Positions 620-40,603 of a stretch of DNA of 45,612 bases are shown in pieces (the stretch's first letter is position 1; each line of letters begins with the position of its first letter). The translations under genes and the position numbers were made by a program. This DNA is from Candidatus Aenigmatarchaeota archaeon (GTDB lineage Archaea > Aenigmatarchaeota > Aenigmatarchaeia > CG10238-14 > SCSR01), in the NCBI GenBank assembly GCA_038998625.1, contig JAWADS010000003.1, forward strand, positions 1 through 45,612, given 5' to 3'. Under the pieces are notes generated by a model. It worked only from the letters and a program-made list of their open reading frames with translations. It was not told the DNA's origin and ran no database searches.

Positions 620-940
620 CTATGTACCTTTTTTGAAGTTGAAGTTATTTTTGTCAATTTCTGAGAGCCAGTGAGACGCTCGCCAAGCAATTTCTTTTAA
701 GACTGATTTTGAAAGATGAAAAGTTTCTGTAGTGTGCCAACGTCCATCTTCTTGCTTTTCCCTCCTTTCTAAAGAAACATTGTTTTTCCATAAGGTCCAG
801 TTTACATTTTTACCTTCTCCTATAGGAATTTTTCCTTTAAGTAATGGTTTTTGTTTTTCTTTTTCTAACCTAAAAATTTCTTTAACTTTTTGTAAATCTT
901 GGGATTTATTTTCACTCATTGAATTTGCTAAACCTTCCAT
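620..940 (-). CDS. Hypothetical protein, possibly PC4/Whirly-like nucleic-acid-binding fold
   Basis: ATG at 940 follows a GGTGGTG SD-like motif. The pattern WTLWKNNVSLERREKQEDGRWHTTETF plus a C-terminal helix resembles PC4-like beta-sheet proteins (inference). Confidence 0.6.
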   Translation of the reverse strand: MEGLANSMSENKSQDLQKVKEIFRLEKEKQKPLLKGKIPIGEGKNVNWTLWKNNVSLERREKQEDGRWHTTETFHLSKSVLKEIAWRASHWLSEIDKNNFNFKKGT

Positions 941-1186: not shown

Positions 1187-1606
1187 ATGTTAAATTTAGT
1201 TCCAACCCTTTATGATACGAAGATTTTTCCTGATCCTCGAGTTTCTGAAATTATTGAAGAATCAAAGAAAAAAGTTGCAGAATATTTCAAAATACCAAAG
1301 TATTTGCTTGATGGTGTTAAATTTAAGATATCCAAATTACCAGAATTTTATCAAATCGGAATGAAATTTGTTGATGGTTATTTGGTAAAATATATAAAGA
1401 AGGTGGGGAAAGTTCTAGGTTTATTTTTTCCTTATAAAAATGAAATCTACTTAGATTATGAAAATTTATACGATGAAAAACTTTTGAAAAGAACTATAAT
1501 TCATGAACTTGTTCACAAGGCGCAAGAAGTTTTTGGAAGGATTTATAGCTTGCCAAGATATTTAATTGAAAAAGAAGCATATGAAGTTACAAATAAATTG
1601 GCTTAA
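1187..1606 (+). CDS. Small HEXXH zinc-metallopeptidase-like protein
   Basis: TIIHELVHKAQ motif with a downstream EKEA helix (gluzincin-like third ligand) and upstream GLF...EIYLD strands. Confidence 0.7.
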   Translation: MLNLVPTLYDTKIFPDPRVSEIIEESKKKVAEYFKIPKYLLDGVKFKISKLPEFYQIGMKFVDGYLVKYIKKVGKVLGLFFPYKNEIYLDYENLYDEKLLKRTIIHELVHKAQEVFGRIYSLPRYLIEKEAYEVTNKLA

Positions 1607-4179: not shown

Positions 4180-6198
4180 TTATCTAAATCTTTCCTTTCT
4201 CCATTCTTCAACTTTTCCTTTTTCTACAACAGCCCTACCCAAAAATCCATGTTCTTCTTCGGGCACTATAATTAAACCTTTTAACGGATCTAAGGCATGC
4301 TCTCTAATAACAACAATCTGCCTTTCCATGGATGCCACCTGACCAATATCTATACCAAAAAACTTTTTAAATTCTTCTGGTTTGTTTAGAATATCTTCAG
4401 GTTTTATATTTTTTTCCAAGAATTCAACGATTATTTTCAAGGCTGTTATACTTTGTCTTACTTCTTGAGGTGACCCCCTTTCGAAAATTATGTAGACTTC
4501 TTTTCCTTTACCCATACCTTTTTGTTGTAATTTAAAGTAAATTTTATATAAATACCACATTGCTTCAGTTCCTAAAGGAATATGAATGTGGGCAGGCATG
4601 AGAACAGAAGGATAACCGGAATGAATTATCCTTACAAATTTACCAGCATCTTCTGGCATTAAATCTACAACTATATCAGGATCTATATTGGAAGAAAGCA
4701 AATGCTCAAGATCAATAGCGATACCCATGATTTTTCCTTCAGGATCAATTTCCTTTATCAAATAGTACATTTGTAAAGGATTAGGCAGCCTTGACCATTC
4801 TGCTATTAAAGGTGAGCTCATGGGCGTCTCCAAAGCGAAAAATATTTTCCCTTTTGCATCTTCCAAAACTTTTTTTAAATCATATCTTTTATGAATAGTG
4901 TCATCAGGACACTTAGACTGCATAAAGTGCCCCCAAATATATTTTGCTGAAACAGCGGGGACCCAAAGCCTAAAATCTAGTTGGAACTGTTCATCATCTA
5001 TGGAAAATCTTTCTATTCTATGTTCTTTTTTCCAATCTTCAACAGTATAATCTTTTTTATTCTTTCTTTTTTTCTCGAACTCAACAAGATATTTTACATT
5101 AATATCAACAATATTTTTCCAAAGGGGGTCATTTGTTAATTCCATATATTTAGCGATTATGTAGTAAGCTATTCTTTCGGAGCCATAGGCTAAGTTTACA
5201 CTTTCAATTGCTTCTTTAAATCTAGTTATCCATCTTTCTTCCACAATCTGCTTTAAAGTTAGATATTCTTTCTTTTCTTTTTCATCTAATTCTGCTGGAT
5301 TCAATTCTTTTCTTTTAACAGCCTCAGCTTTTTCTAACTTTTCTTTTAATCTCTTATAAATTTCCCTTCTTTCCCTTCTTTCCTTTAAAGATATTTCTGT
5401 TGTTAATATACTTTGTTGAAAATATCCCATTTCCCTTTCTAATTTAAGTTTTTCTTCTTCAGGTAATTGTATTTTTTTTTCAATTATTTGCATTAATTTT
5501 TCTTTTCTTTCTTCCAACTCTATTTTCAATCTATTTAATTCATCTTCCATATGGGGAATTTCTATTTCAAGGGACCTAATAGTTTCATTAACATTATCCT
5601 TTATCGCTTCGAATAAAGAAGGTAGATGTAAGATTTCCATTATATTTTTTTGTCTAACGGCCCATTGGAGTAAAGGGATATCATTTCCTAATTCATCCTT
5701 TGCAAAAATTTTTTTGATTTTTGTTTCTTCCAAAAAATAAGTTAAAGGTCTACCCCAAAAATCCACAAGCTGCAAAGGCTCCAATTGTCTCGAGGCTAAG
5801 AGGAAAGAATAAGATTCTGAAGAATGAACGAGCATGTATTTAGCCCCCAATTTTATACAGTTTTCCAAAATGTAATAATGTCTTTCATGGGAAAACCTAT
5901 ACTTATCAGCAATGCTTTCATCTAAATATGGCAGTTCAATTTCCCCAAAAGCTTTGGCTTCACTATGTATACCAAAATTTATTCCAAGCTTTTCTATAGC
6001 TTCCTTTACTTTTTTTTCTAAATGTGGTTCGTTGAATTCAGCTATTGATTCTAAATCTACCTGTGCAAACCTTACACCTTGCATCAAAGGAAAGCCAGAA
6101 ATTTTTCTAGCAATTCCAATATATTGTAGTCCGCCTTCTCCTTCTTGTCCTCTAGCTATGCCCCAAAGACCTGAAGAAATGCCTACAATATAGGGCAT
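4180..6198 (-). CDS. Endonuclease IV / xylose-isomerase-like TIM-barrel metalloprotein with large coiled-coil insertion
   Basis: Ordered metal-ligand motifs GIHSE, LVHSS, ALETP, IDLEH, IIHSG, AHIHIPLG and IFERG, with a long E/K/R-rich helical insert between LVHSS and ALETP. Confidence 0.7.
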   Translation of the reverse strand: MPYIVGISSGLWGIARGQEGEGGLQYIGIARKISGFPLMQGVRFAQVDLESIAEFNEPHLEKKVKEAIEKLGINFGIHSEAKAFGEIELPYLDESIADKYRFSHERHYYILENCIKLGAKYMLVHSSESYSFLLASRQLEPLQLVDFWGRPLTYFLEETKIKKIFAKDELGNDIPLLQWAVRQKNIMEILHLPSLFEAIKDNVNETIRSLEIEIPHMEDELNRLKIELEERKEKLMQIIEKKIQLPEEEKLKLEREMGYFQQSILTTEISLKERRERREIYKRLKEKLEKAEAVKRKELNPAELDEKEKKEYLTLKQIVEERWITRFKEAIESVNLAYGSERIAYYIIAKYMELTNDPLWKNIVDINVKYLVEFEKKRKNKKDYTVEDWKKEHRIERFSIDDEQFQLDFRLWVPAVSAKYIWGHFMQSKCPDDTIHKRYDLKKVLEDAKGKIFFALETPMSSPLIAEWSRLPNPLQMYYLIKEIDPEGKIMGIAIDLEHLLSSNIDPDIVVDLMPEDAGKFVRIIHSGYPSVLMPAHIHIPLGTEAMWYLYKIYFKLQQKGMGKGKEVYIIFERGSPQEVRQSITALKIIVEFLEKNIKPEDILNKPEEFKKFFGIDIGQVASMERQIVVIREHALDPLKGLIIVPEEEHGFLGRAVVEKGKVEEWRKERFR

Positions 6199-32929: not shown

Positions 32930-33229
32930 TTATTCTTCTGGCTCATGCAAAACTTGAATTTTCCCTGTTCTTGGTACATTGAGCTGTAACTTATCTTTAA
33001 AACTTGTGGCAAAGGCCCCAGAAATTTTTACTGTATCTCCTATATCTACTTTATCTATATCTTTTTCCCATAAAGAAAGAGAAATTTGCCCTGTCGCATC
33101 TTCTAATAAAACATCCACAACACTTCTTCTTCCATATTTTGTGTTAACTTCTCTCACTTCAGACTTATCAATAACTTTAGCTTTTATTGTTATGTTACTC
33201 ATTCCAATTTTTATTTCTGATATGTTCAT
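32930..33229 (-). CDS. ssb: Single OB-fold ssDNA-binding protein (SSB/RPA-like)
   Basis: ISEIKIGM...KVIDKSEVREV...LEDATGQISLSLW...GDTVKI...LQLNVPRTGKI. Confidence 0.88.
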   Translation of the reverse strand: MNISEIKIGMSNITIKAKVIDKSEVREVNTKYGRRSVVDVLLEDATGQISLSLWEKDIDKVDIGDTVKISGAFATSFKDKLQLNVPRTGKIQVLHEPEE

Positions 33230-33271
33230 TTTAACTTACTTAATGCTTTTTGGATTTTATTTATTTAAATT

Positions 33272-33356
33272 TTTTTATTGGCTCGCTCCACTGAGCGGTC
33301 CACCTCGCGCAAGATATTAAACAAAGAATATAGGCGCGAGGTCCTTCTTTGTAAAA
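33272..33356 (-). ncRNA. 85-bp GC-rich structured element, copy 1 (candidate ncRNA/cis element)
   Basis: 82/85 identical to the reverse complement of 39713-39797. Interleaved 8-bp and 9-bp stems plus a small hairpin. Strand is inferred. Confidence 0.55.
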
Positions 33357-33393
33357 AATTGTAAAGCAAAAAAAATCAGCAAAAATTTCCCCC

Positions 33394-33440
33394 TTTATAT
33401 AGATTTAGAACCACCACGAGTGGTTCTAAATCTTTAAATA
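33394..33440. promoter_or_regulatory. 47-bp palindrome copy B
   Basis: TTTATATAGATTTAGAACCAC CACGA GTGGTTCTAAATCTTTAAATA. Confidence 0.8.
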
Positions 33441-33502
33441 TTAGTTCAAAAAAGTTTTAAATTTAAAATTTAACTTAATTCCCTCTACAATATATGAAAA
33501 AT

Positions 33503-33985
33503 TTATCTTATTACATCTGAAGTGGCTGCTCCGATAGAAGCAAAAAGAGAAACCAAAACAACTAGCTTAACTGCCCATATAACATCAGTTATTATATTGC
33601 CAATTATTCCTACTGTAAAAAGAACAGAAAAGCTGCAAACATAAGAAACTAAAATTACGGAAAAGACTCTTCTTTTAATTTGAAAGTTGAAGTATTTTTG
33701 ACGATAAATCAGGTAGCTCACTAAAAATGTCAGAAAGAACAATGCAAATGATCTGAAAATATCTAAAAGCTTAGCAATCTCCCAGACTTCCTGGGTAACT
33801 ATAAAGGGGGCTGACAAAATTAGGGCGCCAACAATTTGCTCCCCAATGTCGGAACGAGTAAAAGTTTTTGTAACAATCTTTTCTTTCAGCCTGTTGAAAT
33901 ATTCTTTTTCCCGTGATGTTAACTTTTTCAAATAGCTAATCCTACTTTCAGAAGGAATTTTCCACAGGCGTTTTTTCTTAAACAT
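33503..33985 (-). CDS. DUF2391-like integral membrane protein
   Basis: DIGEQIVGALILSAPFIVTQEVWEIA motif, four TM segments and an ASIGAATSD C-terminus. Confidence 0.78.
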   Translation of the reverse strand: MFKKKRLWKIPSESRISYLKKLTSREKEYFNRLKEKIVTKTFTRSDIGEQIVGALILSAPFIVTQEVWEIAKLLDIFRSFALFFLTFLVSYLIYRQKYFNFQIKRRVFSVILVSYVCSFSVLFTVGIIGNIITDVIWAVKLVVLVSLFASIGAATSDVIR

Positions 33986-34012
33986 TATAATAAAATTCTG
34001 TTTTTGCTTGTA

Positions 34013-34966
34013 TTATTTTTTTACAGAAGGATAAGTTCCTTTTTTCATGAAAACTCTATCAGTTCTTACGGCCAACCCCACTTTCTTTTCATACATCTCT
34101 TCACTCTTCATCTTTGCAATTCCTAAAGCAATCAATTCATTTTTCAAGCTCATTATTGCTATGGTTTCGCCTGCTAAAATATTCTTTTGAATCCTTGTGA
34201 TGCCATTAACATATACTGGGGCTCCGTTACAAATAGAATCTACAGCAGAATCTTTTACAAAAACTTTTTTCACATGATCTATAGCAAATTCTATAGGAAT
34301 TAAAATTTTTCTTAGTTCTTTTTCTTCTTTATTTTCCCTCCAAAATTCATAGGCATCTTTTATTTCGACCAGCGAATGAGCTTGATCTTCATGAAAATTC
34401 CCAACTATTATCCTTCTCAATTCAGTCATATGGGCGCCAACATTTAAAGATAGACCAAAATCGTGAACAAGCTTTCTTATGTAAGTTCCAGCCTCAGTGC
34501 CAACACGAAACAAAACATCTCTTCCGTTAACTTCTAAAATATCAAAAAATCTTACTTCCCTTTCTCTAATCTTTCTGGCCACAGCAGATTTTTTTGGGGG
34601 AATTTGCTTTATTCTTCCAATAAAATTTTTTATATTTTCTTTCAACAAATCTTCTGAAACATCTTTATGTAAATGCATTACTCCAACATATTCCTTATCC
34701 AAACCCATTAAAACAGGCATGGCTTTTACAGCTTCTCCTAAAGCCACAATCAAAACTCCGGTAACTTTTGGATCTAGAGTTCCAGCATGACCAACTTTTT
34801 TAACATTAAAAATTTCTTTTATCCATTGCGAGATTTGGTGCGAAGTTGGCCCAGAATGCTTATCCACAACTATAACAGAAGAATTAATTAATTCCTCTAT
34901 ATTTCTTTTTTCTGGTTCTTTTCCGTAGTCAGGATTTGTTTCCTCTTCTTCTCTAATTAGCCACAT
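34013..34966 (-). CDS. cbf5: H/ACA pseudouridine synthase Cbf5 (TruB family)
   Basis: DKHSGPTSHQ, GHAGTLDPKVTGVL, EAGTYIRKL and a PUA domain. Confidence 0.97.
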   Translation of the reverse strand: MWLIREEEETNPDYGKEPEKRNIEELINSSVIVVDKHSGPTSHQISQWIKEIFNVKKVGHAGTLDPKVTGVLIVALGEAVKAMPVLMGLDKEYVGVMHLHKDVSEDLLKENIKNFIGRIKQIPPKKSAVARKIREREVRFFDILEVNGRDVLFRVGTEAGTYIRKLVHDFGLSLNVGAHMTELRRIIVGNFHEDQAHSLVEIKDAYEFWRENKEEKELRKILIPIEFAIDHVKKVFVKDSAVDSICNGAPVYVNGITRIQKNILAGETIAIMSLKNELIALGIAKMKSEEMYEKKVGLAVRTDRVFMKKGTYPSVKK

Positions 34967-35142
34967 ATAATTAGATTTAAAAATAATCTTTAGTAAAGTT
35001 TACTTTTGCTATGGCAATATTTTTTAATTTTTAACCAAAAAATAATTAACTTTAAATCTTTTTTCTTAAAATTGTGCTCTAATTTAAAAACTTTTCTGCG
35101 ATTAAAATAAAAAGTTTTCTATCAAATAAAAAATAGAGAAGA

Positions 35143-36117
35143 ATGAATAGGGCTTTAATTGGCTTGCTTTTGAGTTTAGTTGGATTAGCCTCTGCTTTGA
35201 TTATTGCTAATACAACAATTTCTCAGCAACAAATATACAAAGCCATGAACATGAGCTTTGATATGGATACAAAAATTGAAGTTTATCCTGGAGAAACAAA
35301 AACTATAGAGGGAAGATTATTAAACACAGGATGGTTATGGCTTTATAATGTCACGATAAAAGCAGAGAATCTTACTTATGAGCATACAATAACTCCAAAT
35401 AATATTCCAGTCTTGCCGATAAAATATTATTGGGTTGATGGAAGAGCCTTTAGAACTCCTCAAAACTTTAGCATAACCATAAAAATCCCTGAAAATCTAA
35501 CAGCAGGAGAGAAGGAATTCTTTTTAACAGCTAACGGAAGTTTTAGAATTTACTTACCTATGGATATGAAGTATTTACATTATCCTATGCAAATAAAGCA
35601 AAGAGTTGTGCTTAAAGTAGTTCCAACACCTTCAATAGAGATAAAAGATATAACTTTTCCCGAAGTTGTTATAGCAAATAAAACTTTTGAGATTTCAATG
35701 CTTGTTATAAACAATGGAGATATAGGCACTACTGCTAACATTTCCATAGATTTACCAAAAGATTGGCAAGTTGATTCAAAAACAAAAAGTATAAGAATTG
35801 AGGCTAGAGAAAATAAAACCCTTAATTTTAGCGTGACGCCTAGCAATAGTAGTGGGCAAGTTTCCCTCTATCTTTTATATCCAGTAAGGCAAAAGATAAT
35901 TAATATCACTAAAACTGGACCTTTCTTGGTGCCTCAATTAGAAGAAGTTGTAGAAAAGCCAGTGCCAGGATTAATAGAAAGAATTGTATCGTTTATAAAA
36001 TCTCTCCCACCCATCTTACTTTTGATAATAGTTATTTTATCAGCTGTAATAATTTGGAATTTGGCTGGTGTCATAAGATTTTATAGAAGAAGAAAGAAAC
36101 CTGAAAAACCTGGATAA
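35143..36117 (+). CDS. Membrane-anchored surface protein with Ig-like (CARDB/NEW3-like) domains
   Basis: Signal peptide, LLNTG and INNGD strands, DLPKDWQV, many sequons, and a C-terminal TM followed by RRRKK. Confidence 0.82.
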   Translation: MNRALIGLLLSLVGLASALIIANTTISQQQIYKAMNMSFDMDTKIEVYPGETKTIEGRLLNTGWLWLYNVTIKAENLTYEHTITPNNIPVLPIKYYWVDGRAFRTPQNFSITIKIPENLTAGEKEFFLTANGSFRIYLPMDMKYLHYPMQIKQRVVLKVVPTPSIEIKDITFPEVVIANKTFEISMLVINNGDIGTTANISIDLPKDWQVDSKTKSIRIEARENKTLNFSVTPSNSSGQVSLYLLYPVRQKIINITKTGPFLVPQLEEVVEKPVPGLIERIVSFIKSLPPILLLIIVILSAVIIWNLAGVIRFYRRRKKPEKPG

Positions 36118-36134
36118 ATTTTATTAATTTTTTA

Positions 36135-36536
36135 TTATTTTTTATTTCTCTTTTGAGTTTTCTTCTCATCCTTTTTAGATTTTTCTTCTTCAATTTTCTT
36201 CTCTTCCTTTTTTACCAAAAATTCTTTAAGTTGAGCTGCAGAGGGTTTCTTCAAACCAAATTTTTTAATTAAGTTTGCCTTTTCATAAGCAGAAATTACT
36301 TCCTCATCACTAGCATCTTCTTTTATATCTAAAACATATTCTAAAGGCTCCAAGTGCATTATGTTACATCTTTTCCTTCTAACTCCTGTCAAAATTTTTG
36401 GGCCTGTTATTAAAACAAAGCTTCCTGATTTCCCTTTTTCTTTAGGAAAATTCTTTATTACTACACAAAGCTTACCTGCCTCACTACCGGCAATTTTCCT
36501 GCAAACTCTTCCTATTTCAAGGGTCAAGGTCATCAC
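36135..36536 (-). CDS. rpl14e: 50S ribosomal protein L14e
   Basis: EIGRVCRKIAGSEAGKLCVV and TGVRRKRCNIMHLEP motifs. Confidence 0.95.
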   Translation of the reverse strand: MMTLTLEIGRVCRKIAGSEAGKLCVVIKNFPKEKGKSGSFVLITGPKILTGVRRKRCNIMHLEPLEYVLDIKEDASDEEVISAYEKANLIKKFGLKKPSAAQLKEFLVKKEEKKIEEEKSKKDEKKTQKRNKK

Positions 36537-36606
36537 TTTACAATTTTGTAATAAATTATAAATTAATTTTAATTATTTATTTTAAACTTTTTTGCCAAGA
36601 AAAAAT

Positions 36607-37083
36607 TTAACTTAATAACTTATTTAGGACCCATCCTATGGCCAGAGAAATAAAAACATACCAATAAACCCAATTTAAGGAAGAACCTATATAAGGCAAA
36701 TTAAAGGGCAGAGCTACAACATAACCAATTTTTTCATATTTAAAATGAAGCCATGGAAAGATTAGAGAAATAACTATAAGAGAAACAAACAATGTTTTAA
36801 TACTGTGTTTCATGAATTGGGTATTTATTTTCATCATCTCATTCAAAAATTTTTCCACTTCACCTTTATTTCCTGCTTGCTGAGCCTTTGTTAAGTTTTC
36901 CCTAATTTCTTCCATCTTATACTTTAGCTCTTTTAGAATATTTTTTCTAAAAATTATTTTATTTAAAGTCAGAATGAGGGAAGTAAGAATTATTGATACT
37001 AAAGTTATGGCTAAATAAGGGGGCAAAGTAGTTATAGGCCCAAGGATTATATCTACAGCAGCTATGATTTGCTGGAAAACCAT
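36607..37083 (-). CDS. EMC3/TMCO1 (DUF106) Oxa1-superfamily membrane insertase
   Basis: TM-coiled coil-TM-TM layout, WVYWY motif and position after secY. Confidence 0.88.
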   Translation of the reverse strand: MVFQQIIAAVDIILGPITTLPPYLAITLVSIILTSLILTLNKIIFRKNILKELKYKMEEIRENLTKAQQAGNKGEVEKFLNEMMKINTQFMKHSIKTLFVSLIVISLIFPWLHFKYEKIGYVVALPFNLPYIGSSLNWVYWYVFISLAIGWVLNKLLS

Positions 37084-37084
37084 T

Positions 37085-38548
37085 TTATCCTCCTAAAATT
37101 TTCCTGATGATTGGATGAGCCTCTTCCAATTTTTGATTTGAAAGTTCTTCATAATAATTATAAATAATCATAACAGTTAAAAGAATTCCTGTGCCTGTGC
37201 CTATGACATCTAAAATATCGGCTGAAGCAGCCAAAAGGCCAACAAGCAAACCGCCTAAAACTGCCAATGGCGGAATATACCTGTTTAAAACAGATTCTAT
37301 AATTCTTGGATCTCTTCTATAACCAGGAATTTGCATTCCTACACTAGATAATTGCTCTGCCACGCTTTTTGCATCCATACCAGCAGTATTAACCCAAAAA
37401 ACAGAAAACATAGTTGCTAAGGCTGTAAGTATGATTAAATAGATTATAGCACGAAGAATTTCAGTTGGCACTAAATTTTGATTTATTATATTGATCAAAA
37501 GGGTTCTTGGGGCAGAAAGATAATAAGCCATACCACTTGTAGGATTTCCTTGCTGATCATAACATCCTAAAGGCCCACATAAAAGGCCAAATTCATTAGG
37601 CTGCAATCCAAACCTTCCCATTAGTTGAATATTAGCAATCATGGCAGCAGCGAGAATAACAGGAATGTTGCTAGTATATAATAATTTCAAGGACCATGTC
37701 CTTCCAAAACCTTTTAGAGCTGCAAAGGCCAAAGGTATATTTATTTTTATGTGCTGGGCGTAAATAACGATGATGAAAATAATTGCTGTGGTAACGATGG
37801 GAAGAAAACTAACTGAAAAGGATGGAAGATCTCCAGCAAAAAGGCTAATAAGGCTAACCCATAAACGACCTGCAGGCGGATTCGTTGTAGAAGGAATGCA
37901 AGATGCTAAATCTAAAGGCTGACAGGTAGTAGCAAATGGAGAAAATATTCCTATAAAAATTTGTGTTGCTACTCCTGCTGCTATAAATAAACTAATTCCG
38001 GAGCCAAATCCCCATTTTGTTACCAAATCATCTAAAAAAATTACAATTATTCCACCTAAAGCTAATTGAAATATTACAAATGCTAAAATTCCTGGTCCTC
38101 CTGTAACTTGTATGGCCCCGGCTAAAACAAAAGCTATGGCTTCTAGGAAAGCAAAAATTATGGCTAATCCTTTATTCCAGCTCTGAAATTTTTTTCTATA
38201 TTCTGGCTTAGTAGTGTCCCATTTTAGGATTTTAGAACCTACAAGCAATTGTAATATAATACCAGCAGTAACTATAGGACCTATTCCTAAAGTCATTAAA
38301 CTACCAAATTTAGATCCCAATACAATTTCAAAAAATCTAAATTGTTGATAGGTCGCAGGAGCTACGCCATAAACAGTTATGTACGATAAAACTATGTAGA
38401 TGATTAAAGCTATACCAGTCCATTTCATCCTAGTGTTAAAACTTTGTCTGTAAGTAGGTTTTTCTACTGAAGGAAACCATCGAGAAATAGAGGAAATTAT
38501 ATCAAATTTTTTCTTTTGAGCTTCTTCCAAATTTTCTTCGCTATTCAA
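37085..38548 (-). CDS. secY: Preprotein translocase subunit SecY
   Basis: SLMTLGIGPIVTAG, GSGISLFIA, YTSNIPVIL, QIPGYRRD and GTGILLTV motifs. Confidence 0.98.
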   Translation of the reverse strand: MNSEENLEEAQKKKFDIISSISRWFPSVEKPTYRQSFNTRMKWTGIALIIYIVLSYITVYGVAPATYQQFRFFEIVLGSKFGSLMTLGIGPIVTAGIILQLLVGSKILKWDTTKPEYRKKFQSWNKGLAIIFAFLEAIAFVLAGAIQVTGGPGILAFVIFQLALGGIIVIFLDDLVTKWGFGSGISLFIAAGVATQIFIGIFSPFATTCQPLDLASCIPSTTNPPAGRLWVSLISLFAGDLPSFSVSFLPIVTTAIIFIIVIYAQHIKINIPLAFAALKGFGRTWSLKLLYTSNIPVILAAAMIANIQLMGRFGLQPNEFGLLCGPLGCYDQQGNPTSGMAYYLSAPRTLLINIINQNLVPTEILRAIIYLIILTALATMFSVFWVNTAGMDAKSVAEQLSSVGMQIPGYRRDPRIIESVLNRYIPPLAVLGGLLVGLLAASADILDVIGTGTGILLTVMIIYNYYEELSNQKLEEAHPIIRKILGG

Positions 38549-38952
38549 ACTTTCACCGCCCTACCACCAGCTTGCTCTATTTTCTTTATGGCAGATTTAG
38601 AAAAATACTTTGCCTTAATTGTCAAAGCTTGAGTTAGCTTGCCTTTGCCTAAAACTTTTTCATATCCCAATTGAGATAAATCAATTTCTTTTAATTTTTC
38701 TTTTTCAGCCAACTTATCAATTTCCTCTAGATTTATTATAGCTGCTTTCTTAGAAACTTCTTTAGGCTTCTTAAAACCTTCTTTACCAAAATGTTCCGGC
38801 TCATATTTTACTGTATAGCTCCATTTATGTTTGTGCATTCCAGCCTTGCCCCTACCTCCTCTACTCCCACCACCACGCCATTTTTTGTGAGAACCATGGT
38901 AAGTTCTATGACCCCTTCTCCACTTTCTTTTACTATGTCTCTTAACCACCAT
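38545..38952 (-). CDS. rpl15: 50S ribosomal protein L15
   Basis: RGGGSRGGRGKAG, KVLGKG and AIKKIEQAGG motifs. Confidence 0.97.
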   Translation of the reverse strand: MVVKRHSKRKWRRGHRTYHGSHKKWRGGGSRGGRGKAGMHKHKWSYTVKYEPEHFGKEGFKKPKEVSKKAAIINLEEIDKLAEKEKLKEIDLSQLGYEKVLGKGKLTQALTIKAKYFSKSAIKKIEQAGGRAVKV

Positions 38953-38957
38953 TTAAA

Positions 38958-39425
38958 TCACATCATCCTCTCTATCAACTCATTTATTTCTTTCCCCCTA
39001 TAACCCAAATCTCCTTTCGGATAATATTCTTTTATTGATTTAAATCCTTTTGAAGGTGGAGTTAACCTAAAAAAAGGTTGTAATTCTTCAAAATCTTTTA
39101 ACTTTATTCTGCCTGCAAGAATTTCTTCAGCAAAATTTTCAAATTTGTCAAAATCTGTAACTTCTTTTAAAATTTTTTCATCTACTCTACTTCCATTTTT
39201 TAATCTTAATCTTTTTTTCAATAATTTCACTAAAGTTTCTTTATCAATTTCCCCCCATGTAACATAATCTTTTACTTTTTCTATCATGCCTTTTATACTA
39301 GGAGAATTTTCCCATAAAGAGCAATGGTTAGCAGAGTTCAACCTAAGCATTTTCAATGTATCATTAACTTCTTTTTTTATCCCCACGCCACCTCTAATCC
39401 TAATCACAGCTAGCATAAATATCAT
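38958..39425 (-). CDS. rpl30: 50S ribosomal protein L30
   Basis: AVIRIRG, KDYVTWGEI, FRLTPP and GDLGYRG motifs. The real start may be ATG 39416. Confidence 0.96.
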   Translation of the reverse strand: MIFMLAVIRIRGGVGIKKEVNDTLKMLRLNSANHCSLWENSPSIKGMIEKVKDYVTWGEIDKETLVKLLKKRLRLKNGSRVDEKILKEVTDFDKFENFAEEILAGRIKLKDFEELQPFFRLTPPSKGFKSIKEYYPKGDLGYRGKEINELIERMM

Positions 39426-39479
39426 TATTATTCATAAAAATTATAAAAAAATTTGATTTTTGATGTTAATTTTTCCTGT

Positions 39480-39526
39480 CTTTTCAAAATTTACTACCAC
39501 TTTTAGGAGTTCTAAATCTATATAAA
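39480..39526. promoter_or_regulatory. 47-bp palindrome copy C (degenerate left arm)
   Basis: ...ACTACCAC TTTTA GGAGTTCTAAATCTATATAAA. Confidence 0.7.
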
Positions 39527-39550
39527 TTTTTCTATTTTTTCCTAGTTTTA

Positions 39551-39597
39551 TTTATAAAGATTTTGTACCACTTTTAGGAGTTCCAACTCCTAAGAGT
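39551..39597. promoter_or_regulatory. 47-bp palindrome copy D (degenerate right arm)
   Basis: TTTATAAAGATTTTGTACCAC TTTTA GGAGTTC... Shares the 18-mer TACCACTTTTAGGAGTTC with copy C. Confidence 0.65.
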
Positions 39598-39622
39598 TGT
39601 ATTTCCAATGCTTTTTAAAGCC

Positions 39623-39669
39623 TTTATATAGATTGCGAACCACTAATGGTGGTTCTAAATCTATATAAA
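39623..39669. promoter_or_regulatory. 47-bp palindrome copy E
   Basis: TTTATATAGATTGCGAACCAC TAATG GTGGTTCTAAATCTATATAAA. Confidence 0.8.
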
Positions 39670-39712
39670 GGAGTAATTTTCCGATTTTTTTCAATTTTTA
39701 AAATCTTTTAGC

Positions 39713-39797
39713 TTTTACAAAGAAGGACCTCGCGCCTATATTCTTTGTTTAATATCTCGCGCGAGGTGGACCGCCCAGTGGAGCGAACCAATAAAAA
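39713..39797 (+). ncRNA. 85-bp GC-rich structured element, copy 2
   Basis: Inverted near-identical copy of 33272-33356, in the same position relative to a palindrome. Strand is inferred. Confidence 0.55.
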
Positions 39798-39817: not shown

Positions 39818-40603
39818 TTAACTTGCCATTTTGTCATAAATATTTAACTTCTTAAAAGCATCATAAATAGCAGTAATTAAATTGATTCTCATGCTAGTAT
39901 TACCAAAAGTTTTAACCCAGACATCTTTTATTCCAGCCAATCTAAGAATTTTTTTGCTTTCATCATCTGCCACTATGCCCAAACCTTTTGGGGCTGGGTA
40001 AAGCTCAACTCTAACAGAGCCAGACTTTCCCTTAACTTTATAAGGAATAGAATGGGGCTCATCACATGAGCATTCCCAACTTCCACACCCACGCTTAACT
40101 CTAATTATGTTAAGCTTAGCCTTTTGTATGGCTTTGTTTATTGCATCCCTTGGTTCTGGCGCGACTCCTTTACCTATTCCCACTAAACCATCTTCATTTC
40201 CCACAACGACAAAGGAAGAATAATTAAATCTTCGCCCAGATTTAGTCATTTTTGTAGTTATACGAATAGGAATCCTCTGGACTCCTCCACCCTTTCCAGT
40301 TCTACCACCAATGGTTATTAATTCATTTTTTAAGTTTGGGACAAGCTTATCCACAATTTCAAATTCTTTTATTATTCTTCCAGATTGCAAAATTTCATCT
40401 ATATCAGTAATTTTTCCTTCAAAAACTTCTCTGCCTAATTGGGTCTTGGGCTGCCATTTTTCTAAAGCTTCTTCCTTAACTACATGAATCTCTTCAGGTA
40501 TTTCTTCTATGGGAACTTTTTCTATTTCTTTCACTTCTTCAGCTTCTAAAATTTTTGCTTCATTGCTTTTTTCCTCTCTTGTTTCTTTTTCTATTTCAGC
40601 CAT
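39818..40603 (-). CDS. rps5: 30S ribosomal protein S5
   Basis: WQPKTQLGR, RGCGSWEC and PAPKGLG motifs. Confidence 0.97.
   Translation of the reverse strand: MAEIEKETREEKSNEAKILEAEEVKEIEKVPIEEIPEEIHVVKEEALEKWQPKTQLGREVFEGKITDIDEILQSGRIIKEFEIVDKLVPNLKNELITIGGRTGKGGGVQRIPIRITTKMTKSGRRFNYSSFVVVGNEDGLVGIGKGVAPEPRDAINKAIQKAKLNIIRVKRGCGSWECSCDEPHSIPYKVKGKSGSVRVELYPAPKGLGIVADDESKKILRLAGIKDVWVKTFGNTSMRINLITAIYDAFKKLNIYDKMAS

Follow-up and report, generated by a model that had tools for sequence, protein, structure and literature searches.

A dispersed intergenic repeat, short, GC-rich and foldable, in a very small archaeal genome

A GC-rich block found at two sites in the window analysed here (45,612 nt of contig JAWADS010000003.1 from a Candidatus Aenigmatarchaeota archaeon) is most likely a young selfish repeat rather than a two-copy RNA gene. 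The preliminary description had presented it as a duplicated cassette of two copies; a genome-wide BLAST copy count instead returned 20 complete copies on 11 of the 19 contigs (E 1e-16 to 1e-50), and a 21st truncated by the end of contig C7. This recurrence is far beyond chance. The host, a hot-spring archaeon, has a very small genome (469 kb, 19 contigs, 31.5% GC), and all 20 copies are intergenic, at a density of ~43 copies per Mb. We put at about an even chance the fuller reading of the block as a young, lineage-specific, non-autonomous REP/PATE-like selfish repeat whose fold is recognised single-stranded.

A repeat search recovered the reported 85-nt inverted pair (33272-33356 and 39713-39797; 82/85, 96% complementary), with mismatches between the two copies at alignment columns 11, 23 and 40 only. 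The perfect interleaved stems and the small hairpin (H0) described earlier were also present, as were the 47-bp palindromes ~40 nt from the blocks, and the spacers between block and palindrome differ between the two copies, as had been stated. The features of the two sites are as follows.

32930-33229, - strand: Ssb-like OB-fold gene (PF21473, 4.2e-08), its start facing the 5' end of copy 1
33275-33352, + strand: element copy 1 (short form of 78 nt), TTATTGG...CTTTGT; assigned to the strand that retains the U-A/U-G pairs of H0
33284-33297, + strand: H0 of copy 1, CGCTC-CACT-GRGCG
33302-33310 with 33334-33342, + strand: S1 of copy 1, 9 bp, ACCTCGCGC/GCGCGAGGT
33321-33328 with 33345-33352, + strand: S2 of copy 1, 8 bp, ACAAAGAA/TTCTTTGT
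33311-33320, 33329-33333 and 33343-33344, + strand: loops of copy 1
33394-33440, no strand: palindrome 1, 47 bp, two facing TATA modules of TTTATATAGATTTAGAAC type
33503-33985, - strand: DUF2391 membrane protein gene, its 3' end facing palindrome 1
38958-39425, - strand: ribosomal protein L30 gene
39450-39622, no strand: remainder of a composite repeat (4 genomic copies), with two further TATA modules
39623-39669, no strand: palindrome 2, 47 bp, first part of the ~220-nt composite repeat
39717-39794, - strand: element copy 2, 78 nt, short form, core 32 nt past the rps5 stop on the same strand
39785-39772, - strand: H0 of copy 2
39767-39759 with 39735-39727, - strand: S1 of copy 2
39748-39741 with 39724-39717, - strand: S2 of copy 2
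39818-40603, - strand: ribosomal protein S5 gene

Element lengths ranged from 78 to 117 nt (14 copies of 78 nt, three of 103 nt, two of 112 nt and one of 117 nt), the short form (14/20) apparently derived from the long form through a deletion between TCGCT repeats. The main subfamily contained 18 copies with 92-100% identity, and two copies were diverged (84-86%). Column 47 is A in all four long copies of the main family, indicating that source-copy lineages exist. No decayed relics were detected in the host genome by nhmmer at E<=1, except for the C7 fragment and one 30-nt match at chance level.

The element was found by BLAST in none of 40 relatives, and a covariance model run against 117 other genomes of the order gave no real matches and two weak ones without the stems. 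It was also absent from the genome, metagenome, virus, phage and plasmid collections searched, and a scan of Rfam 15 gave no match, in keeping with the earlier statement that no known family was recognised. Self-BLAST of one relative, G017 (365 kb), revealed no repeat family with more than 4 matches, and a same-genus genome was too diverged for DNA alignment. The host spacer between the S5 and L30 genes is 392 nt long and holds element copy 2 and the promoter-bearing composite. In two relatives the spacer is missing or almost so: G017 has the genes abutting, and G003 has them abutting or nearly abutting. The G006 spacer (~945 nt) is of unrelated sequence, and L30 is not adjacent to S5 in G001.

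The earlier suggestion of a MITE-like element was thus borne out in part, in that the repeat is dispersed, intergenic, present in 20 copies, restricted to this genome among those searched, and located in the S5-L30 spacer, but the defining features of MITEs were not found: analysis of terminal inverted repeats and target duplications showed that the two flanks of one copy are no more alike, whether inverted or direct, than flanks taken from different copies. A conserved target tetranucleotide was not distinguishable from the TTTATTGG edge, which belongs to the element itself. The search for transposases and recombinases covered four families in an assembly of 91.8% completeness, which bounds the gene-absence results. 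The Y1_Tnp, RVT_1 and DDE_Tnp_1 profiles each had no match in the host genome, and an integron-type integrase was not found there (best PF00589 match 11 bits). IS200/IS605 tnpA/tnpB ends had been proposed as a possible source of the sequence; there was no tnpA found, and the single decayed tnpB has its own 13-bp inverted ends, unrelated to the element. The presence of this remnant indicates that the IS200/IS605 family once visited the genome. The one tyrosine-recombinase-like ORF (C4:11004-11816, below the Pfam cut-off) does not co-occur with the element, being present also in 5 of 40 relatives in which the element is lacking.

Of the partner cells in the alignment, 99.2% were paired, compared with 39-51% when the partners were slid. 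Within the 18 main copies, variable columns numbered 0 of 34 in S1/S2 versus 5 of 35 elsewhere in the core (p=0.054), while between subfamilies 9 of 34 stem columns differed versus 1 of 35 others (p=0.006). Ten core positions separate the two diverged copies from the main 18. Nine of these fall within S1/S2, and the pairing looks selected because eight of the nine stem differences make four compensated pairs. Loop sequences were kept identical between subfamilies. All of the covariation was traced to one lineage of two copies, and therefore reflects few events; template switching in quasi-palindromes can yield compensated changes without selection.

The position in the small hairpin that varies between G and A (G in 15 copies, A in four, T in one) is relevant to the strand of the element. 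The preliminary description had noted this substitution and left the strand unsettled; the substitution is real, and it pairs as U-G/U-A when copy 1 is read on its + strand and copy 2 on its - strand. On the opposite strand, 15 of the 20 copies have a mismatched C-A there. This only strand-telling substitution favours the strand opposite to that read away from the palindrome. Read on the - strand, where H0 keeps its pairing, copy 2 is sense to both rps5 and rpl30, not antisense to them as previously described.

The block and the palindrome had been considered one cassette, but just 4 of 20 copies adjoin a palindrome, so the two do not form a unit. The 47-bp palindrome consists of two facing TATA modules rather than a maintained hairpin, and no compensating changes were found in its arms between copies. 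Of the two TATA modules in the stretch 39450-39622, one is located 83 nt before the rpl30 ATG; this stretch also carries, on the + strand, a hairpin with a T-run after it. Across the genome, TATA-like motifs are most frequent at -35 to -26. T-runs enter the element core from both strands: the 5' edge has a T5 run, and in some copies the 3' edge is closely followed by TATA-like boxes or T-runs. Several copies have 3' flank types in common, and at C12_2726 such a shared flank gives a TATA ~30 nt before the next ATG.

According to the reading we prefer, GC-rich elements of 78-117 nt would have spread recently through the intergenic spacers of one AT-rich genome. Copying would proceed via a single-stranded intermediate, without terminal inverted repeats or target duplication, and the mobilising enzyme would recognise the fold, composed of H0, the 9-bp S1 and the 8-bp S2, which joins the S1 loop to the 3' tail. 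This enzyme, presumably not encoded in the assembled 92%, may have been lost, left unassembled or supplied in trans. The AT-rich borders would terminate incoming transcription and then restart it, and copies would for this reason be tolerated close after stops, even inside a ribosomal-protein operon. The mixed orientation of the copies, their neighbour genes, which have no common theme, and the T-runs on both strands are consistent with random insertion and a DNA-level role. Against the selfish-repeat reading, no mobilising enzyme was found in the families searched, no empty site was recovered at the DNA level, and the H0 and S1 hairpins are unlike each other, whereas the hairpins at the ends of IS200/IS605 elements resemble one another. 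The conservation of the loops between subfamilies also suits a protein-binding RNA.

It is possible, though unlikely, that the block is a cis-acting 3'-end RNA element used by the host, forming the tail of the upstream gene, where the fold aids termination, blocks 3'-exonucleases or marks processing, and that its genomic spread is secondary. The upstream ORF is on the same strand in 11 of 19 scorable copies, and in nine of these 11 the core is 9-54 nt past the stop; H0 keeps U-G/U-A on that strand, and the stems covary and the loops are conserved between subfamilies. The fold is followed directly by a T-run, like an intrinsic terminator, in four copies (C2_11867, C7_11735, C8_18067 and C13_10067), but the post-fold sequence of the other 16 of 20 is A-rich, not T-rich. 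Moreover, relative to co-directional neighbour genes, seven of 12 copies are sense and five antisense to both. On the sense strand the core is preceded by the T5 run, the usual archaeal termination signal (PMC8716108), and a large part of transcription may therefore end ahead of the fold. With only 2 nt linking S1 to S2 on this strand, an H-type knot stacked over the 9-bp S1 would have too short a loop, and S2 is marginally stable at 60-75 C. The element is absent from the relatives searched, and hence is not a conserved regulatory device.

The preliminary description had offered, beside a MITE-like element, an independently transcribed structured RNA read away from the palindrome, which could be a multi-copy sRNA, ribozyme or ligand- or protein-binding pseudoknot, possibly driven by the TATA palindrome. 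The interleaved helices with compensated changes and identical loops between subfamilies fit such an RNA, which for want of an Rfam match would be new, and on the palindrome-away strand the loops (2, 5 and 10 nt) are nearer the classic H-type geometry. This origin is nevertheless improbable: 16 of 20 copies have no palindrome, T-runs intervene between palindrome and core on that strand, and the small hairpin is mismatched there. There is also no conserved promoter at a fixed distance, as the TTTATTGG edge lies 27-39 nt further from the core in long forms. It would mean twenty near-identical genes in 469 kb and none in 117 relatives, and we know of no precedent for so many genes for one small RNA in such a genome.

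A similarly low probability is assigned to an integron attC- or att-like recombination site, at which circular cassettes with one copy would integrate at a resident copy and leave direct flanking copies. On C6, an MNT-HepT toxin-antitoxin pair lies between the two diverged copies, which are in direct orientation:

C6: element 4883-4994, 20 nt, MNT 5015-5419, HepT 5382-5816, 18 nt, element 5835-5946

Direct copies on C12 (10456 and 11224) likewise bracket a 96-aa ORF of no known family, and same-contig neighbouring pairs are direct in six of nine cases (three inverted). In attC sites the bottom strand folds and the genes are on the opposite strand, and the genes of both bracketed cassettes are indeed opposite the best-folding strand. 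However, the integrase search described above gave only the 11-bit match, the recombinase-like ORF and the element do not co-occur, and no RYYYAAC/GTTRRRY motifs, which characterise attC core sites, were seen by eye. The 16 remaining copies have housekeeping genes as neighbours (r-proteins, 16S, tRNAs, aaRS) and do not form cassette arrays, and plain homologous recombination also makes direct repeats around a gene.

It is very improbable that the block is bound as duplex DNA by a dimeric protein (a nucleoid, origin-recognition or transcription factor) for which the inverted repeats would be half-sites. Orientation independent of neighbour genes, flanking T-runs that suggest a little-transcribed core, and a CTCCACTGG string in the hairpin region, which may resemble archaeal origin-recognition boxes, would suit such a site. 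A single dimer is hard to fit to two inverted repeats that interleave and have spacers of 23 bp and 16 bp, however, and compensated changes in 2 of 20 copies alone would require a second protein. The G/A wobble position is strand-specific, CTCCACNGG-type strings form no cluster beyond the elements or close to an AT-rich unwinding region, and the relatives searched lack the element. An assembly or chimera artefact is scarcely credible: contigs C17 (both ends), C7, C19 and C6 end in the repeat or its flanking microsatellite, indicating that the repeat breaks assembly, but 20 copies lie inside contigs between unique flanks, with point changes and differences of form among them, and six sequencing runs from two studies contain 70-97% of sampled words of a 7.8-kb stretch. 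The independent support from these runs is weak, since the source sample may be among them and some rows may duplicate a single data set.

Among known systems, bacterial REP/REPIN sequences, which are mobilised by RAYT, a Y1 HUH transposase, resemble the element in being short, GC-rich, foldable, intergenic and species-specific, with tens of copies, no terminal inverted repeats or target duplications, frequent positions just past stops, and stems that covary between families. The element differs in its archaeal host, in which no RAYT/Y1 gene was found, in having no close inverted doublets (REPINs), and in its fold of two interleaved helices plus a hairpin rather than one imperfect palindrome. 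A published account of REP sequences is PMC3184786. PATEs, non-autonomous IS200/IS605 derivatives, also have no terminal inverted repeats or target duplications and carry subterminal hairpins near both ends, and their single-stranded type of mechanism would explain selection on folding; the element's two hairpins are dissimilar, however, no tnpA was found, and the tnpB remnant ends are unrelated.

Prokaryotic MITEs are likewise small, non-coding, multi-copy, intergenic and taxon-specific, and are reported to be dense in two DPANN genomes (105-146 per Mb in PMC11602168, versus ~43 here). Unlike them, the element showed neither the inverted repeats nor the target duplications, and no parent IS was found. 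The Correia/NEMIS repeats of Neisseria, similarly small, bring promoter- and terminator-like sequences and are tolerated between genes or co-transcribed with them; Correia elements have 26-bp terminal inverted repeats, a TA duplication and an IHF site, all of which are lacking here. Integron attC sites (e.g. Vibrio VCRs) are structured sites of ~60-130 nt whose folding is conserved and which recombine in folded, single-stranded form, and the likeness extends to the two small accessory cassettes bracketed by direct element copies, but no IntI, core-site motifs or array were found in the genome of the element, and most copies are beside housekeeping genes. Finally, although they belong to another domain of life, have no sequence relation and serve as an analogy only, the GC clusters of yeast mitochondrial DNA are mobile-like, GC-rich foldable repeats that pepper the AT-rich spacers of a very small genome, as the element does, and have no dedicated transposase known.

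The GC-rich folded repeat is a real and striking feature, and it is a single dispersed-repeat family rather than the two-copy cassette it was first taken for. Twenty complete copies were found on 11 of the 19 contigs (C1 to C19) of this Aenigmatarchaeota genome (469,094 bp, 91.8% complete, 31.5% GC), and the identical set was recovered by BLAST, by a covariance model and by nhmmer. A 21st copy was truncated by the end of contig C7. This was by far the largest repeat family detected by self-BLAST of the genome. SSU rRNA and RNase P RNA mark the genome as archaeal, and its size would suggest a DPANN-like lineage. The sequencing runs in which the window's sequence words occur were hot-spring metagenomes, among them DNA runs with 70% and 10% of the words. 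In the window (contig C3), a repeat search again found the inverted 85-nt pair, with arms 96% complementary, and the palindrome near each arm was confirmed:

33272-33356 and 39713-39797: inverted 85-nt arms
33275-33352, plus strand: element, copy 1
39717-39794, minus strand: element, copy 2
33394-33440: 47-bp palindrome, about 40 nt from the first arm
39623-39669: 47-bp palindrome, about 40 nt from the second arm

Reading both copies, which differ at three alignment columns (11, 23 and 40), bore out the interleaved 9-bp and 8-bp stems and the small hairpin, and the neighbouring genes agreed with the preliminary description, which named ssb, rps5 and rpl30; they encode an Ssb-like OB protein, DUF2391, S5, L30, L15, SecY and L18. 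The family also carries a caution for annotation: what looks in one window like a "duplicated ncRNA cassette" can be the visible part of a repeat spread over the whole genome.

Contigs C17 (at both ends), C7, C6 and C19 ended in the element, in a composite repeat that accompanies it or in a (TTTTTTTA)n run, so the true copy number is probably higher than that counted. The (TTTTTTTA)n microsatellite, at C19:5767-5857 and C17:7070-7095, ended two contigs and abutted the 5' edge of the element in some copies (the 5' flanks of C12:10441 and C12:11209). With TTATTGG and the 8-bp helix as the outer limits, 14 copies were 78 nt long, three were 103 nt, two were 112 nt and one was 117 nt. The long forms had additional TCGCT-type units, variable in number, between the 5' edge and the small hairpin. 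Because the long form is common to the diverged subfamily (two copies on C6, as opposed to 18 in the main family), the short form looks like a deletion derivative that multiplied afterwards. At C7:11790-11830 the last 18 nt of one copy (AGGTCCTTCTTTGTTTTT) were tandemly duplicated.

No copy was found in the 40 relatives searched by BLAST or in the 117 other genomes of the order searched with the covariance model, in which two weak matches (22.8 and 17.7 bits) lacked the helices. No match was found in phage and plasmid collections, and self-BLAST of 365 kb of a relative (G017) revealed no comparable repeat family. Database pattern scans, in which one query fitted only the diverged C6 form, returned three hits among genome contigs, one among metagenome contigs and first 0 and then 12 among viral contigs, all attributable to chance. 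In the full text covered by a literature search, no such element was reported in DPANN or other archaea; the per-genome MITE tables that accompany PMC11602168 and PMC13343696 might include this family. The spacer between the S5 and L30 genes is 392 nt in this genome. In G017 the two genes are directly adjacent, in a second relative (G003) they are adjacent or almost so, and in a third (G006) approximately 945 nt separate them, filled with unrelated opposite-strand sequence; in the same-genus genome G001 a different gene precedes L30. From this comparison of gene order, a copy of the element appears to have split a ribosomal-protein operon. A 3-kb flank of a copy had no DNA match in a same-genus genome, which made alignment of an empty site impossible.

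The fold was scored on an alignment of 20 rows, 18 of them distinct. It consists of a 5-bp hairpin (H0, CGCTC-CACT-GRGCG), a 9-bp helix (S1, ACCTCGCGC/GCGCGAGGT) and an 8-bp helix interleaved with it (S2, ACAAAGAA/TTCTTTGT). The three helices were paired in 99.2% of alignment cells, compared with 39-51% when the partners were slid by one to three columns. Three pairs changed on both sides and one more was masked by an alignment gap, and all of these changes were confined to the two C6 copies: G-C and C-G to U-A in S1, A-U to C-G in S2, and the gap-hidden replacement of C-G by A-U in S2. None of the 34 columns of S1 and S2 varied among the 18 main copies, compared with 5 of 35 in the rest of the core (p=0.054), while between the subfamilies 9 of 34 stem columns differed versus 1 of 35 elsewhere in the core (p=0.006). 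Stems that change in pairs and never singly, with loops constant between subfamilies, are what selection on pairing predicts, here in one lineage and with few events. A similar pattern could arise from template switching in quasi-palindromes.

The folding strand is not fixed by the sequence, since the pairing of H0 favors one strand and the loop lengths favor the other. The H0 pair at columns 16-23 was U-G in 13 distinct rows, U-A in four and unpaired in one, and the variable base over all copies was G in 15, A in four and T in one, so that H0 holds only on the plus strand of copy 1. On that strand the loops are 10, 5 and 2 nt, and on the opposite strand 2, 5 and 10 nt, which by geometric reasoning would be nearer to a classic H-type knot; on the same reasoning, a 2-nt loop could not cross the 9-bp S1 if the helices stack. 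Of the pseudoknot first described, the two interleaved helices stood. By nearest-neighbor energies S1 is strong, and S2 is marginal at temperatures of 60-75 C. Without the pseudoknot, the fold of the short form had a z-score near -2 whichever strand was used, and that of the long forms was near 0. A folded single-stranded DNA form may be an alternative to a folded RNA, and compensated changes in two interleaved helices provide a compact test case for separating selection at the level of single-stranded DNA from selection at the level of RNA.

The favored explanation, given about even chances, is a REP/PATE-like element that is young and non-autonomous. Recognition would be of the fold as a single strand, and the AT-rich borders would allow the element to lie between transcription units. 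The usual view of ultra-small symbiotic archaeal genomes is that they have been stripped of selfish DNA. In this one, a single young repeat family takes up approximately 0.4% of the 469 kb and breaks the assembly at several contig ends, without a recognizable transposase, terminal repeats or target-site duplication, which raises the question of what copies it. If the copying enzyme is derived from the host or a virus, the repeat would be a marker of that partnership. In the 91.8%-complete genome there were no matches to the Y1 transposase (PF01797, E<=1), to a reverse transcriptase (RVT_1) or to a DDE_Tnp_1 transposase. A decayed tnpB at approximately C2:14713-15313 (locus L030:1100-1700), with the gene for a proteasome subunit on one side and prolyl-tRNA synthetase on the other, contains stops and an internal gap; its zinc ribbon is of the Cas12f1-like_TNB type. 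It was flanked by 13-bp inverted strings, TTCTGTCGCATTA and TAATGCGACAGAA, unrelated to the element. A 270-aa ORF at C4:11004-11816 matched the archaeal phage integrase family below threshold (24.8 bits; cut-off 27). Its homologs were found in 5 of 40 relatives from two families, at 54-78% identity and none with the element, and this patchy presence suggests a candidate accessory or mobile recombinase.

All copies were intergenic, as judged with a custom longest-ORF picker rather than a gene finder. The neighbors had no common theme and included ribosomal-protein genes, the 16S promoter region, three convergent tRNA genes, the neighborhood of RNase P RNA, and genes for an aminoacyl-tRNA synthetase, NYN, radical-SAM and endonuclease IV proteins. 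In either orientation, the element was nearer to the end of the preceding gene than to the next promoter. The upstream ORF was on the strand of the element in 11 of 19 scorable copies, and in nine of those 11 the core began 9-54 nt past the stop codon, which would suit an RNA element of mRNA 3' ends. However, five of the 12 copies in gaps between co-directional genes were antisense (seven were sense), and this reading is considered unlikely. A T-run followed the fold on the sense strand in four of 20 copies and was lacking in 16, in a comparison with intrinsic terminators. The 5' edge was invariably TTTATTGG, mostly with more T upstream, while the 3' flanks were of a few types common to several copies, some with TATA-like boxes and four with T-runs; in copy C12_2726 such a box lay approximately 30 nt upstream of the next ATG. 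Genome-wide, TATA-like strings peaked at -35 to -26 relative to start codons, and a Shine-Dalgarno-like string was present in just 32 of the 183 genes scored, so that a leaderless state is probable for many mRNAs. Local GC/AT skew tracked gene strand and was uninformative on replication-strand bias in element orientation.

It is doubtful that the element is a folded nucleic-acid module of a new class, acting through its knot-like structure. In one possible variant, small cassettes (a toxin-antitoxin pair and an orphan ORF) would ride on a recombination or integration site in a DPANN-type archaeon that has no classical integron integrase. In another, a structured RNA with an activity of its own (cleavage or the capture of a protein, for instance) would have spread as a retro- or ribo-mobile unit. 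Either variant, if true, would be the first of its kind reported among ultra-small archaeal genomes. An autonomous ncRNA or ribozyme was judged improbable. As the preliminary description held, no known RNA family was recognized: at the gathering cut-offs of Rfam 15 only a tRNA-Gly passed in the window, the best match in 33200-33480 at E<=10 had an E-value of 0.7, with everything there far below cut-off, and at 18 loci around copies only nearby tRNAs, 16S rRNA and RNase P RNA were matched, none overlapping the element. An att-like recombination site was given equally little weight. Two diverged direct copies bracketed an MNT-HepT pair at C6:4883-5946, with gaps of 20 nt and 18 nt, and two direct copies on C12 bracketed an orphan 96-aa ORF, but the other 16 copies adjoined housekeeping genes. 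The bracketed pair on C6 is a toxin-antitoxin pair of a Polbeta nucleotidyltransferase (MNT) and a HepT-like partner, and the bracketing is exact. A protein site in duplex DNA is very improbable, and an artefact is extremely improbable.

The palindrome, described as part of the cassette, adjoined only four of the 20 copies (two on C3 and one each on C5 and C1). Its arms are two TTTATATAGATTTAGAAC modules facing each other, and a GC/TA asymmetry between the arms was kept in three copies; judged from this asymmetry, the palindrome has not been maintained as a hairpin. It belongs to a composite of approximately 220 nt with three TTTATATAGATTTAGAAC-type TATA modules, found at three sites and one contig end:

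Window 39450-39674: composite repeat
C1:67686-67900: composite repeat
C5:19489-19703: composite repeat
C6:25224-25378: composite repeat, at a contig end

The last composite module in the window lies 83 nt upstream of rpl30 and now plausibly drives rpl30-rpl15-secY. A 12-bp hairpin and a T5 run come after one of the modules, which is on the opposite strand from the element; this arrangement looks like a putative gene for a 50-nt small RNA. Its sequence is complementary to a 15-nt string that lies within the presumed rpl30 leader, downstream of the third module. A fifth, solitary 47-bp TATA palindrome at 1118-1164 of the window, between divergent genes at 620-940 (minus strand) and 1187-1606 (plus strand), may serve as a promoter in both directions. 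A second, AT-only repeat family, with AAAATATATTTTT-type units in short arrays that may be replication origin or promoter clusters, was found as follows:

C5:2481-2608: AT-only array
C9:5245-5356: AT-only array
C6:16824-16879: AT-only array
C16:1742-1852: AT-only array

String searches for an origin-recognition box found no cluster of strings outside the elements. Motifs of split tRNAs, K-turns, the HUH nonanucleotide nick site and stop-codon read-through were absent or unconserved by eye; column 47, within a TATT-like string, was T in 11 copies and A in nine. ARAGORN placed no tRNA over any copy. It called 13 tRNAs without the intron option and 26, mutually inconsistent, with it. Several tRNA genes, at C13:1200-1300 and other loci, had apparent non-canonical introns, and the tRNA next to C13:1122 had additional bases in the T-loop.

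By the tests run, the element is no member of the MITE, REP-RAYT, attC or Rfam families. It differs from attC sites in that there was no integron integrase (best PF00589 match 11.4 bits) and no cassette array, and the attC core-site motifs were not seen in it by eye. The MITE-like element first proposed was right in that the element is small (78-117 nt), non-coding, present in 20 copies and always intergenic; in contrast to MITEs, it has neither terminal inverted repeats nor target-site duplications, and no autonomous insertion sequence with its ends was found in the DDE_Tnp_1, Y1_Tnp and RVT_1 searches. Its ends, TTTATTGG and CTTTGT, are not inverted repeats of each other. The mean best inverted match was 6.58 between 30-nt flanks of the same copy and 6.89 between those of different copies (18 of 20 copies), and the mean direct match was 6.69 in both cases. 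Elements of the IS200/IS605-derived PATE type have neither kind of repeat and insert next to a fixed short target; here a target of that kind would look the same as the conserved 5' edge of the element. PATEs derived from IS200/IS605 have similar subterminal hairpins at both ends, recognized by one TnpA, whereas H0 (CGCTC/GRGCG) and S1 of this element are dissimilar, with only G(C/A)GGTCC after each in common. No gene for RAYT (Y1) was matched in this genome, and the inverted doublets of REPINs were lacking, the closest inverted element pairs being at least 6.3 kb apart. Like REP sequences, the element is a short, GC-rich, imperfect palindrome that is extragenic and species-specific.
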